64,000 nucleotides of DNA from IMG/VR virus record IMGVR_UViG_2875128709_000003. One strand, written 5' to 3'. Within the stretch, counting starts at the first letter, position 1, and every line of letters begins with the position of its first letter. This DNA is from a virus (lineage: Duplodnaviria; Heunggongvirae; Uroviricota; Caudoviricetes). Made by a program: the position numbers. Below, one piece after another: positions 45,001 through 48,000 of this stretch.

Positions 45001-48000
45001 GTATAGTGCATTTTTAATTATGAATGTTACAGGTAAGAAATTAGATAAAATAGATAGAGAAAAATGTATTGAAACTTATAATAATTTTAAAAAATTACAT
45101 GACAAAGAAATAAATAGATTAAAAGAATTAAAGAAAAACGGTATTAAATTAATAAGCAGTATGGGAATATAATTAAATGTTAATAAATATGGTTTTGAAC
45201 CGAGCCGTTATATTATCGTTAATGGACATAATGATGTCTTTGGTAGTAAAAGTCTTATTATAATTAGATGAGTCATTATATGTTGTAAGATATAGGTTAT
45301 CGAAATAATGTAAATCCTATAAATGAGAGTATATTGGAAGTCTAAGGAAATAAGAACCACGCGACTTTAGTCGTGTGAGGTTCAGGAGATATTACCTCAA
45401 TCAACAAAACAAAGTCAAGAAATTGCAGATATACTAAGAAATAATAACCTAGAAGTTTTTACTACAAAAGGATATAATTTTGATGTGGATAAAATATTGA
45501 CTATTAAAGCATTTTCAAATAATAAGCAAGAAAGTATTTTAATAGAGAGTTTAATACCTAAAGACACACCATTTCATGTAGTAGAAATTAAAAAGCAATT
45601 AAATTTAGAATAGAGAGGATTTAATTTATGAAAAACTTTAAAAAAAGAGTAAAAGAATTTGTTCAGGAACACAAACTACAAGAAGTTATAGATAACTATG
45701 ATTTTAAACATAAAGCAAAGGTTTATATTGCATCTGAAGGATTATTTAGTGAATTAGATCAAATAGGATTAGAACTAATAGCTGATATATGTGAACAAGT
45801 TAATTTAGATTATTACTTACCACAACATGCAGATTTTAATAAGAAAGATACAGAAGACTTTACTATAACAGGAGGAATGATAGCAGAAGGAGATAATTCA
45901 CAACTACGAACTTGTAATTTTGTATTAGCACATCTTAAATTGCCATTAGATGAAGGAGTAGGTGGAGAAATAAGTAGATTTAAAACTATGATAGAATATG
46001 AACCTAATAAATATAAAGGTATTGTAGGGTGGGCTGATGACATAAGATTTAAAACTAAACCTAATATTAATCAACCTTCATTTAAAAATCAAGTAGGTTA
46101 TTTAAATCAATACTGCCAAGGAGAAATTGAAAATAGTTTAGGCTGCTATGAAAAACTAGGAGATTGTTTTACAAAACTATGGAAAATTTTTGAAGATAGT
46201 ATAGAAAGCGAGGTATCAGATGACTAAGCAATTAGAAATATATTATGATATGGATGAAGTATTATATGATCTAAGTTCATATATTATAAATAAATATAAT
46301 AAGGATTTTAATGATGATATGAAACCTAATGACAATAAATCATATTGGTGGAGTGATTGTAATAAAGCCAGTAAAGAGTATTTTAAAAATTTATTATTAG
46401 AAAAGGGTGCTTTTTATAAAAGCAGCCCTGTCAATAATTCAATAAATATTGCTACAATATTACATGAAAAAGGCTTTAAAATTAAAATAATAACTTTACC
46501 TCAATACAATTCAGATTATTGTGTTAGTGAAAAAGTTAAATGGATAAAAGAATATTTACCTTTTATAAATGTTGAAAAAGATTTAGTGTTTACTGGAGAT
46601 AAATCATTATTAGCTAGAGATAATCGAGTGTTGCTTGATGACAATATAAACAACTTAATAGAATGGAAAAGAAAAGACGGGATATCTGTAGCTTTTTCTC
46701 AGCATTGGAATGACAAATGGAAAGGGTTAAGAGTAAGTAACCATAAAGAATTTTACACTCTAATTCATCAAATACAAAACAATTTAATAAATAACAATGC
46801 AGAAAAAAGTATAGATTTACACAATTTAAAATTTCATTATGAAAATAAATTACATAAAGGAGAGTGATTAATATAGCTAAACTGCACGTAATATTTGCTT
46901 GTATGGGCGTTGGAAAATCAGAAGACTTAATTAGAGAATATAATTCATATAAACTAAATAAAATGAATGTATTAGCCTTAAAAAGCAGAATAGACACTAG
47001 AGAAGGCATAGAGGAATGTTACATATCTTCAAGGAATGGAAATAAAATTCCTGCACAATGGATTGATACTGATGAAAATATTTTTACAAAAGTAATGGAA
47101 TACATAGATACTGAAGGAAATATTAAAGCAATTATTATAGATGAATGTAATTTTCTTTCAGAAGAACAAATAAACCAAATATCAGATATAGTAGATATTT
47201 TAAATATAGATTGCTACTGTTATTCTTTATTAACTAATTTTAAAGGATATCTATTTAAAGGAAGTAAAAGATTAATAGAATTGGTTGACCATGATTGTAT
47301 TAGATTTATGGTTACTAGAGATAGTGAAGGGAATATACCAAATGTAAATGCAAAAATTTTTAATAATAGAATAATTAAAAATGGAGATGAAATAGAAGTA
47401 GGTGATACTCAATATAAACCAATAACAAGGAAGAATTGGAAACTAGGAATAATTAAATAAATAGCAGGAGGAAAATTAAATGAGATATAAAATGTTATCA
47501 ATATTATTAGTTTTTATTTTATTATCTATACCTTTCGTGAAAGATATAAACATTATCAAAGCTATAGATAATAATTCAACTATTACTCAACAAACAAAGG
47601 AAAACAAACCGCCTAAAAAATTAAAATTATCAGAAGATAAGAAGATACTTGGGGTTTGCAGTGGAATTGCTGAATACTTTAATATTGATCCAGCTTTTAT
47701 TAGGGTTATTTGGGGACTGTTAGCAATTTGTTATGGCGTAGGTATTATAGCTTATTTTATATTTTATTTTGTCATGTTTTAAATTAAATAAATAGACATC
47801 AATTAATAGCTCCTTGATTTTCAGGGAGCTATTCTTATATGCAATAATTTTTAAAAACATTATTTAAAGCTTGACTAATATAAAATAATTTGGTAATATA
47901 GAATCATGAAAGGAGAGAGAAAATATGAATACTTTAATATCAATTTACATAATTTCTTTAATAGGAAGTTTATTGTGTGGTTTATATATGAAACACGATA

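Follow-up and report, generated by a model that had tools for sequence, protein, structure and literature searches.

ISDra2, IS608, and the IS1341-type derivatives that carry only tnpB have subterminal hairpins and no terminal inverted repeats. Their left ends adjoin a short conserved motif (TTGAT in ISDra2, TTAC in IS608), and in the IS200/IS605 elements with an omega/re RNA, tnpB is followed by a structured right-end RNA that reaches the right terminus. A donor-joint and homing model has been published for TnpB (PMC8612924, PMC10055086, PMC10690162). The element described here likewise has subterminal hairpins and no terminal inverted repeats. Its left end adjoins the pentanucleotide TTTAT, and a predicted structured RNA of about 195 nt runs from behind tnpB to the right terminus. 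Unlike autonomous IS200/IS605 elements, this copy is missing tnpA, and unlike ISDra2 and IS608, its family has, close to the left end, an antisense ribbon-helix-helix (RHH) gene, of which this copy keeps a truncated version. The element lies in a 64-kb stretch of DNA (the window), which is part of a Clostridium botulinum phage-like plasmid of ~200 kb. From within its right hairpin runs an open frame (45371-45613), which we consider, with a probability of about 85%, to be a recent pseudogene stump: the back half of a gene that lost its front when the TnpB element inserted. The features of the locus are the following.

43422 to 43436, + strand: recurrent promoter-like motif AAAACAATTTAATAA, also found upstream of the intact gene in relatives
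43436 to 43444, + strand: orphan ribosome-binding site (RBS) AATGAGGAA of the destroyed gene
43445 to 43449, + strand: TTTAT, transposon-adjacent motif (TAM) bordering the IS on the left; the AT of the former ATG corresponds to its final two bases
43450 to 45385, + strand: non-autonomous IS200/IS605-type element with tnpB only, 1,936 bp
43466 to 43485, + strand: left-end subterminal hairpin CCCGTGAC-TTTA-GTCATGGG; an identical hairpin is found in a C. botulinum IS (L031)
43475 to 43597, - strand: 5'-truncated RHH (Arc/CopG-like) gene in the IS (RHH_5, E=2.6e-5)
43637 to 45172, + strand: tnpB, an intact ORF with a GTG start for a divergent predicted RNA-guided endonuclease of 511 aa
45191 to 45385, + strand: predicted omega (right-end) RNA scaffold
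45354 to 45383, + strand: right-end subterminal hairpin GAAC-CACGCGAC-TTTA-GTCGTGTG-AG-GTTC, which contains an in-frame TAG (45368-70)
45371 to 45385, + strand: opening five codons of the frame (SCEVQ), which belong to the right end of the IS and not to the gene
45386 to 45405, + strand: predicted guide segment of the right-end RNA (GAGATATTACCTCAATCAAC), also the target beside TTTAT in IS-less genomes
45386 to 45613, + strand: 3' remnant (codons 90-164 and the stop) of a 164-codon gene, weakly DUF5698/UPF0316-like
45485 to 45613, + strand: 42-codon ORF with a GTG start (RefSeq hypothetical protein WP_257787132.1); in the intact gene this GTG encodes an internal Val

Two element-free references were used, an IMG/VR contig of 199,910 bp (L001) and the C. 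botulinum plasmid CP022401.1 (L019). Homology to both ends at 43449 and restarts at 45386. The right terminus (...TCAG) is kept in 13 relatives, with divergence immediately beyond it. Besides the window, three independent elements (L016, L031, and L041) have TTTAT adjoining the left end, and a further one (L042) has TTTAT plus a T. The empty sites in L019, L001, and L040 read TTTAT/GAGATATT, where the slash marks the junction, and no duplicated flank is found at the element, so there is no target-site duplication. Integration 3' of a TAM without target duplication is the mode of the IS200/IS605 family. The insertion site does reveal the target of the element, as had been expected from the sequence: the junction is the TTTAT TAM and then GAGATATTACC. 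Both ends carry subterminal imperfect palindromes, as in other IS200/IS605 elements. The arms of the right hairpin (CACGCGAC at 45358-65 and GTCGTGTG at 45370-77) enclose a TTTA loop. The left and right hairpins are 84% alike and are the only two occurrences in the window (0.01 expected), and the stems covary among related elements. No tnpA was detected in the element or in the 64-kb window (best tblastn E=0.6), and thus the element is non-autonomous; a Y1 tnpA is located upstream of tnpB in two relatives (L003, L006). The exact TnpB and the exact upstream 180-aa allele were found nowhere but at this locus (about 50 assembly blocks), and a look-up of both proteins returned no other insertion site and no element-free carrier of the left allele. 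The region is a hotspot of insertion sequences; in L034 and L035 another TnpB element lies immediately in front of the 180-aa gene.

The 511-aa 'hypothetical protein' of the element is a predicted TnpB-family nuclease, and at NCBI the identical protein is named 'RNA-guided endonuclease TnpB family protein'. Its sequence stays below the curated thresholds for TnpB: the NCBIfam model guided_TnpB (NF040570) scored 56 bits (E=3.8e-15) against a cutoff of 100, and neither OrfB_IS605 nor OrfB_Zn_ribbon of Pfam matched even at E<=10. Across 30 homologues of 60-81% identity, D253 (GIDIG), E361 (VExMN), and D454 (QRDxYS) do not vary. When an AF2 model (pLDDT 77.9) was compared with the PDB by Foldseek, the best 30 matches were all TnpB, Cas12-family (Cas12f, Cas12m, Cas12p, Cas12k, CasLambda, and others), or Fanzor proteins, with E down to 1.6e-10; the TM-scores were low (0.2-0.44) and therefore support the fold class alone. 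The conserved residues and the model point to a RuvC-like fold with an Asp-Glu-Asp triad. A PDB sequence search with TnpB gave nothing significant. The RuvC-II/RuvC-III segment reads KASQYNHFTDEYNKKELKDRWN, and paired CxxC cysteines are absent from the protein and from its family; that is, the zinc-finger insertion (CxxC...CxxC) of canonical TnpB appears to be lacking. The protein is also ~100 aa longer than canonical TnpB (511 vs about 400 aa), from which its missing Pfam match and its score under the NCBIfam cutoff set it further apart. It belongs to a large family of >4,800 homologues of about 500 aa in Clostridia and their large phages, which have neither the zinc-finger cysteines nor a Pfam match.

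The right-end RNA was aligned over 13 sequences (alignment A1). RNAalifold found 42 consensus pairs, 26 of which show compensatory changes; 96.4% of the cells were paired, compared with about 40% with slid partners, and none of 500 shuffles reached the observed value. These results support a structured RNA at the 3' end of the element that ends at the right terminus, as is typical next to tnpB. A scan of 43000-46000 against Rfam at E<=1 returned nothing, which indicates neither a known omega-RNA family nor a group I intron; without the intron, the reading of the element as an IStron was dropped. Since the right-end RNA runs to the right terminus, the flank would supply the guide, by analogy with the IS605 TnpB paradigm (PMC8612924, PMC10055086). 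The predicted guide segment is immediately 3' of the conserved right terminus, and in IS-less alleles TTTAT or TTTAC is followed by the guide sequence with 0-2 mismatches. The first ~16-20 nt of the stump would be transcribed as the guide of the right-end RNA, and TnpB would cut TTTAT-GAGATATTACC(T/A)CAATCAAC in element-free sibling plasmids or in the donor joint after excision. Such cutting of empty sites would favour retention and spread of the element. The frame had also been proposed to be guide-adjacent sequence, which applies in the limited sense that these first ~16-20 nt of the remnant occupy the expected guide position.

The RHH gene of the element lost its start codon and RBS to an internal deletion of ~90 nt. 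L041 and L042 have an intact homologue of 51 aa together with a TTGACA-17-TATTAT promoter. This copy has neither, and the element would be without the strong internal promoter of its relatives. The fragment is labelled 'DNA-binding protein' (40 aa) in RefSeq. As we read the alignment with L041 and L042, the ~90-nt deletion is flanked by a short repeat (~4 nt, GAAA), indicating that small repeat-bounded deletions occur in this lineage.

Relatives that lack the element carry an intact gene at the site. L001 has a 164-aa ORF (L001:3731-4225), and L019 has an intact ORF (L019:5492-5986) followed by a 199-aa protein identical to that of the window. Of the 15 clusters of homologues recovered, 13 are full-length at 163-165 aa; the remaining two have 173 aa and 128 aa, and the latter (P0015) is an N-terminally truncated call. 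The homologues share ...DKDKTW(I/V/S)YEI(L/I)P..., and the intact protein has a hydrophobic N-terminal half on the side that is lost here (codons 2-89). PRK04164 models matched the protein of the destroyed gene at E=4e-7 to 3e-4 and with 20-30 bits (cutoffs 160-351), the match at E=4e-7 spanning residues 2-146. DUF5698 reached E of about 0.01-0.1 (best E=0.0093) in 4 of 13 members of the family, and DUF2179 did not match. Thus the destroyed gene is likened only weakly to DUF5698/UPF0316, as a gene for a small membrane protein. It is similar to UPF0316/DUF5698(+DUF2179) proteins (NCBIfam PRK04164) in size (about 165-180 aa) and in its two-part build, with a hydrophobic N-terminal half followed by a soluble C-terminal domain, but it differs from them in scoring far under the curated cutoffs and in the absence of a DUF2179 match. 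A PDB sequence search with the 164-aa family gave nothing significant and no relative of solved structure. In the GenBank phage collection the locus had no DNA match (megablast), and the stump and the downstream gene had no protein match; a JGI metagenome scan with the downstream 199-aa protein gave no relatives.

Left of the element, the original prediction had placed a recurrent motif and an orphan RBS, and both are there (AAAACAATTTAATAA at 43422-43436 and AATGAGGAA at 43436-43444). The motif has 39 matches with up to 2 mismatches (8.3 expected), 38 of them on the + strand, and intergenic sequence that contains it also precedes the intact gene in L001, L019, and L034-L040. The orphan RBS aligns with AAAGGAGGAAATTATG in L001 and AAAGGAGAAATTTATG in L019, where the 164-codon gene has its RBS and start codon; at this start codon L019 reads ...GAAATTTAT/G TTG GAA. 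A sigma-70-type promoter scan of the region was no richer than shuffled sequence (22 vs 20), so any promoter named here is putative. The orphan promoter-like motif would now be directed straight into the element.

Right of the element, translation of 45341-45616 gives ...TTRL, a stop, SCEVQEILPQSTKQ...QLNLE, and a second stop. The translation and the ORF listing agree with the prediction of an 80-codon frame at 45371-45613 that begins after a stop within the right hairpin and has no start codon before GTG 45485: TAG 45368-45370 is in frame at the boundary of the loop and the 3' arm, and the earliest in-frame ATG, GTG, or TTG is GTG 45485, which opens an ORF of 42 aa (45485..45613). The SCEVQ residues cannot be aligned with KTWIY of the homologues and are part of the conserved ...GAGGTTCAG terminus. 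Because the ...TCAG terminus is conserved in 13 related elements and homology to the element-free relatives starts behind it, the true gene sequence is 45386-45613 only. The preceding 45371-45385 are the final 15 nt of the IS, which by chance are open in the same frame.

The remnant is identical to L019 at 227 of 228 nt, with the one difference being synonymous, its protein has 100% aa identity to the C-terminus of P0001, and the right flank has 3 differences from L019 in 3.1 kb. The N-terminal 89 aa had no tblastn match in four complete IS-bearing plasmids, in which the C-terminal 75 aa are present at 100%. The missing DNA, 265 nt that comprise the G of ATG and codons 2-89, is absent from the window and from all four plasmids. 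Therefore, the event was an insertion plus a deletion and not a simple insertion into a small gene. Since 265 is not a multiple of 3, joining the flanks puts the ATG out of frame, and precise excision would not restore the gene. The alignment with relatives lacking the insertion, which had been proposed as a check, thus reconstructed the gene, the target site, and the boundaries. The observations that had been named as refuting the proposal were not made outright, since the IS-less genomes have a continuous ORF and homologues do not start at the internal GTG. The proposal that the IS had cut the 5' end of a small gene was right in that RBS and start were parted from the body, but the gene is not one of ~80 codons, as it has 163-165 codons in 13 of 13 full-length homologues. 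The stump is an ordinary mobile-element scar and is presumably not translated.

Other explanations of the frame were considered. It is very unlikely that the remnant still functions as a stand-alone C-terminal domain translated from GTG 45485 or another signal. The RefSeq and GenBank gene-callers did annotate the 42-aa hypothetical protein, on 22 contigs, and the remnant shows no decay, its protein being 100% identical to that of the intact allele. However, recency explains the lack of decay, with 1 synonymous difference in 228 nt and flanks that are 99.9% identical. Moreover, GTG 45485 corresponds to an internal Val codon in every intact homologue, only a weak AAAGGA precedes it, 12 nt away, and a set of 5.8 billion proteins contained no homologue starting there except calls on the same truncated allele. 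The 42-codon ORF is probably a gene-caller artefact inside the remnant. Expression from IS-internal signals, as once suggested, found no supporting evidence, and a stop is in frame inside the right end. Scarcely credible is a simple insertion into the 5' end of a gene of ~75-80 codons, in which RBS, ATG, and body would be restored by rejoining at TTTAT. The left junction does come directly after the RBS and the AT, and if the right boundary is shifted 2 nt rightward, AT and G read ATG ATA TTA CCT in frame. This reconstruction was rejected because the 13 relatives, and a homology to L001 and L019 that already covers the GAG codon, fix the right terminus at 45385. An ATG rejoined at this boundary falls out of frame, as 265 nt are missing. 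Again, 13 of 13 full-length homologues (163-165 aa) have the 89-aa N-terminal half that is absent here.

On the reading as a stump, it is left to explain how the 265 bp were lost. In L019, both ends of the segment directly follow a TTTAT. One precedes the right-hand flank (GAGATATTACC...) at codons 88-89 (TGG ATT TAT/GAG), and the other overlaps the start codon in element-free relatives (GAAATTTAT/G). Like its relatives, the element would have integrated 3' of a TTTAT, and the present structure would be the result of insertion at one TTTAT and loss of the DNA between both. We slightly favour an element-mediated route over slippage between TTTAT repeats, which is nearly as likely. In the former, to which we give somewhat less than an even chance, copies at both TTTATs would have recombined, or TnpA would have acted on both, leaving one element; the two copies may have been in one genome (by a local hop and TnpB-assisted retention) or on two co-resident plasmids. 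Both deletion end-points are exactly after the 5-nt motif of the element, which occurs at 0.48% of + strand positions, and the left junction is exactly TTTAT/left end, which random or slippage deletions need not respect. As one strand carries both TTTATs, copies at the two would form direct repeats, and the region is the IS hotspot noted above (L034/L035). Identity to L019 also breaks at the element, from 94.8% on the left to 99.6-100% on the right. However, the genomes are mosaic throughout and neighbouring genes also switch their nearest relative, so the jump in divergence from ~5% to 0.1% is weak evidence and cannot confidently be read as a recombination scar; as proof of recombination in the element it was set aside. 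Furthermore, the searches yielded neither a two-copy genome nor one with the element at just one of the sites, two hits inside 265 bp are a priori unlikely, and the window is without tnpA.

Alternatively, and only a little less probably, the segment may have been lost independently of a transposase, by slippage or microhomology deletion between imperfect direct repeats ending in TTTAT, either preceding or following a single insertion. The 17-22 nt that lead up to each site in L019 have ATAAAACA, GGA, and (A)TTTAT in common, the element holds the other deletion of ~90 nt bounded by a ~4-nt repeat, and removal of a truncated 3-TM membrane fragment might plausibly have been selected. Against this, the slippage repeat would have to abut the left end exactly by coincidence, or the element would later have chosen this TTTAT among the 307 on the + strand of the window, and the deleted segment holds three further TTTATs. 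The possible intermediates were searched for by their junctions. Neither an element at codon 89/90 with the N-terminal half kept (site-2 flank joined to the left end) nor one at the start codon and followed by the complete gene (right end joined to the site-1 flank) was found. The element-free deletion or donor joint (GGAATTTATGAGATATTACC) was absent from IMG/VR, and its 3 metagenome matches were unrelated chance matches. There was no 111-aa N-terminal fusion or 163-aa TTG-start variant among the homologues or cluster members. As no intermediate was found, we infer the order and mechanism of insertion and deletion.

It is unlikely that the machinery of the element produced the 265-bp loss directly, through TnpA joining or through TnpB-guided cutting and copying. 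TnpA would have joined a second, upstream TTTAT to the left end. TnpB would have cut at TTTAT-GAGATATTACC in a co-resident element-free phage-plasmid, with repair from an element-bearing donor, and in this case the element and the adjacent deletion would have been copied together. The switch from a private left allele to a right flank that is 99.9% identical to CP022401 would then be a conversion tract, and the locus would be a natural example of an RNA-guided transposon that behaves as a gene drive among sibling phage-plasmids and wipes out part of the gene next to it.

The practical value of the locus is chiefly for annotation: two RefSeq entries, WP_257787132.1 ('hypothetical protein', 42 aa) and the 'DNA-binding protein' of 40 aa, are gene fragments and not genes. 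Comparison of the occupied site with the empty site of a sibling plasmid gives the boundaries to the base pair, the TAM TTTAT, and a predicted guide for this TnpB family, and tests of this TnpB subtype could build on the pair. If the deletion between two TAM copies was element-mediated, it would be an uncommon by-product of IS200/IS605 activity.

The locus fits the published donor-joint and homing model in that precise excision would leave TTTAT+GAGATATTACCTCAATCAAC, a TAM with a guide match, and in that the element-free sibling plasmids have this site with 0-2 mismatches; the model does not predict the 265-bp flank deletion that accompanies the insertion here. The clostridial IStrons (PMC10690162) come from the same host genus, have tnpB with a guide RNA, as is predicted here, and insert inside genes. 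An associated Arc-like RHH ORF has been reported for that group (PMC10690162), and an RHH fragment is found here too. Unlike IStrons, this element has no group I intron, and only 187 nt separate its left end from tnpB. Its TAM is TTTAT, whereas those of IStrons are TTGAT or TGGG, and since 89 codons are deleted, splicing could not rescue the gene. The locus does not overturn the current understanding of these systems; it carries a scar left by a tnpB-only IS200/IS605-type element.

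Translation of 45341–45616 gave ...TTRL*SCEVQEILPQSTKQSQEIADILRNNNLEVFTTKGYNFDVDKILTIKAFSNNKQESILIESLIPKDTPFHVVEIKKQLNLE*, in which the in-frame TAG at 45368–45370 lies inside the right-end hairpin CACGCGAC-TTTA-GTCGTGTG of a tnpB-carrying element. The first in-frame ATG, GTG, or TTG of the 80-codon frame (45371–45613) was the GTG at 45485. Translation and inspection thus bore out the sequence features on which the original prediction was built: an open frame with no start before this GTG, and a motif and RBS to the left of the element. The features of the region are as follows.

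43422–43436, recurrent promoter-like motif AAAACAATTTAATAA, left of the element
43436–43444, RBS AATGAGGAA, left of the element
43475–43597, minus strand, antisense RHH (Arc/CopG-like) ORF between the left hairpin and tnpB (RHH_5, E=2.6e-5)
43637–45172, tnpB, 511 aa
45628–47782, nucleotide-metabolism module directly downstream of the stump: nucleoside 2-deoxyribosyltransferase-like, NT5C 5'-nucleotidase (with an additional weak T4 beta-glucosyltransferase-like match), thymidine kinase, and PspC-domain protein genes

The motif AAAAYAATTTAATAA had 39 matches in the window with at most two mismatches, against an expectation of 8.3, including those at 3677, 7632, 10378, 23382, 27686, 28512, 33363, 38561, 43422, 46776, 54827, and 57373; the plus strand carries 38 of the 39. 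Many copies are just upstream of ORF starts, and the motif may be a promoter or regulatory box specific to the phage. Only two copies of the hairpin core CGYGACTTTAGTCRTGKGA are present in the window (43468 and 45360).

Two element-free relatives were recovered, and both contain a continuous 164-codon ORF where the original prediction had proposed to look for one by alignment. In the IMG/VR contig L001 it has the same neighbours as in the window (the 180-aa gene upstream and the nucleoside 2-deoxyribosyltransferase-like gene downstream), and in the Clostridium botulinum plasmid CP022401.1 (L019:5492–5986) it is followed by the gene for a 199-aa protein identical to that of the window. A large protein collection yielded 15 homologue clusters, all from ~200-kb contigs of C. 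botulinum, C. sporogenes, or C. rectalis; 13 are 163–165 aa long, one is 173 aa, and one (P0015, 128 aa) is an N-terminally truncated call. The window frame matches the homologues from E90 to the end, and its first five residues, SCEVQ, are unlike KTWIY. The left-flank homology runs to ...GAGGAATTTAT (43449), which is ...GGAGAAATTTAT|G in L019, AT|G being the start codon, and the right-flank homology starts at GAGATATTACC (45386), directly preceded in L019 by TGG ATT TAT. The intervening 265 nt of L019, the G of the ATG plus codons 2–89, are absent from the window. In tblastn searches, the N-terminal 89 aa were matched in CP022401 but not in any of the four plasmids with the IS, and the C-terminal 75 aa in all five at 100% identity. 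Since relatives carry the longer gene and 89 of its codons are missing here, alignment indicates that the frame is the 3' remnant of that gene and that the event is an insertion plus a deletion. A gene parted from its RBS by the IS had been predicted correctly; simple insertion into a small gene was not borne out, the target being 164 codons long with 89 of them lost. The rejoined flanks would read ATG AGA TAT TAC..., out of frame, since 265 is not divisible by three.

The remnant has one synonymous difference from L019 in 228 nt, and the right flank three differences in 3.1 kb; these alignments show the event to be recent, and the frame is a pseudogene stump of recent origin. In the intact gene the GTG at 45485 is an internal Val codon; 12 nt upstream of it there is only AAAGGA, and we infer that the remnant is without a plausible translation signal. 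A 102-aa call from Logan contigs (P0024) reads TAG codons of the locus as Q (MRVYWKSKEIRTTRLQSCEVQEILPQ...) and appears to be a gene-caller artefact that assumed a recoded genetic code. The destroyed gene weakly resembles UPF0316/DUF5698 small membrane proteins.

The right end ...AG(R)(K)TCAG is common to 13 elements related to this one, found on large phage contigs and in Clostridium and Tissierella genomes; their sequences diverge directly after it. The right terminus was placed at 45385, since these conserved ends stop there and L019 homology resumes at the same point. TTTAT adjoins the left end independently in the window, in L016 (Tissierella creatinophila), in L031, and in L041 (C. butyricum); in L042 (SPbeta-like phage) the left edge is TTTAT+T, and a more distant subgroup has TTTAC. 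Therefore, the element as delimited by sequence is 43450–45385 (1,936 bp) and its transposon-adjacent motif (TAM) is TTTAT; the insertion site does reveal the target, as claimed, when occupied and empty sites are read together. TTTAT occurs 710 times on the minus strand and 307 times on the plus strand of the window, an excess that may be an A-rich coding strand effect; fewer plus-strand TTTATs mean fewer same-orientation targets for the element. A different IS in C. botulinum plasmids pRSJ2_3 and pRSJ20_1 (L031/L032) has a canonical 414-aa TnpB and shares the hairpins (identical in L031) and TTTAT of the window element, so the same TnpA-recognition ends are shared by two unrelated-looking tnpB cargos. 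In L034/L035 (positions 578–1822), a TnpB gene that resembles that of L031 in length (414 aa) and Pfam domains immediately precedes the 180-aa gene, which suggests that this region is an IS hotspot.

Over 12.6 kb the locus is identical to C. botulinum contig NKSH01000009.1, and it is 100% identical in four complete circular plasmids of the same species, 197–215 kb in size (CP013844, CP013709, CP013295 (pNPD1_1), and CP013682); one relative is filed in IMG/VR as a 200-kb viral genome. All sizeable window ORFs are on the plus strand. A 504-aa ORF with a TTG start (17630–19144) encodes a PHP domain and the beginning of a DNA polymerase III alpha domain, and comes directly after a 608-aa ORF (15758–17584); the stretch 15758–19144 may hold a replicative polymerase gene that is split or organised in an unusual way. 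Gene-by-gene mosaicism was strong when 42193–47460 was compared with L001, L019, and L037: 42193–42836 is 100% identical to L001 and 97.5% to L019, 42876–43449 is 94.8% identical to L019 and 84% to L001, and 45386–47460 is 99.6–100% identical to L019.

Both end-points of the deletion lie directly after TTTAT, which occurs at 0.48% of plus-strand positions. The loss may have been mediated by the element, either by recombination of copies at both TTTATs or by TnpA acting on both motifs. This would account for a left junction that is exactly TAM|LE (left end), and it is consistent with the near-identical right flank and with a private left-flank allele, as no relative exceeds 94.8% identity to the 180-aa gene of the window, whose allele is always found with the element. 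Slippage between imperfect direct repeats (ATAAAACA..GGA..TTTAT) ahead of both sites also fits the data, and has a precedent in a second deletion (~90 nt) in the same element, flanked by a ~4-nt GAAA repeat in our own reading of the alignment. No intermediate turned up among the homologues, the cluster members, or the IMG/VR and metagenome junction searches, and mosaicism runs through all of these genomes. Of the two routes, we lean slightly toward element-mediated loss.

The evidence on the family of the TnpB protein was mixed. It had no Pfam match, and its match to NCBIfam guided_TnpB (E=3.8e-15) was under the curated cutoff; NCBI names the identical protein TnpB family protein. D253, E361, and D454 are invariant among 30 homologues, zinc-finger cysteines are absent, and the 30 best PDB matches of the AF2 model (pLDDT 77.9) were all TnpB, Cas12-family, or Fanzor proteins. 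Its ~500-aa relatives, P0025–P0144 among them, constitute a large family of >4,800 proteins (E<=1e-5), most of which come from Clostridia and from large phages of these hosts. The family lacks both a recorded Pfam domain and the zinc-finger cysteines, and many members are annotated 'hypothetical protein' or 'transposase'; the subtype is poorly annotated. No tnpA was found in the 64-kb window; related elements L003 and L006 have one. The IMG/VR relative that is element-free at the locus carries, elsewhere on its contig (L005; IMGVR_UViG_2713897211_000002, 130630–136156), a related element with a 62% identical TnpB, a nearly identical right-end hairpin, and a tnpA 3' remnant upstream of tnpB.

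A conserved structure spans the 195 nt leading up to the right terminus, with compensatory changes at 26 of its 42 pairs (96.4% of cells paired versus ~40% with partners slid). Under the IS605 paradigm of TnpB with a right-end RNA guide (PMC8612924, PMC10055086, PMC10690162), the right-end RNA would extend into the flank, and because of this the guide would be GAGATATTACCTCAATCAAC (45386–45405); TnpB would cut this sequence where the TAM precedes it. Element-free alleles have TTTAT or TTTAC followed by GAGATATTACCTCAATCAAC with 0–2 mismatches, which fall at positions 9 and 12. Taken as a pair, the occupied and empty sites define the TAM and, as a prediction, the guide of this TnpB subtype.

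The ~500-aa subtype often has an antisense RHH gene beside it, and an RHH–TnpB association has been reported (PMC10690162). L041 and L042 have an intact 51-aa RHH that is transcribed divergently from a TTGACA-17-TATTAT promoter preceding tnpB; the ~90-nt deletion in the window took this promoter together with the RHH start codon and RBS. Identity as an IStron was also considered. IStrons carry a group I intron; 43000–46000 matched no Rfam family at E<=1 and no group I intron was detected, so the element is not an IStron. It carries tnpB, is of the IS200/IS605 type and non-autonomous, and has a flanking deletion; elements of this kind are already known.
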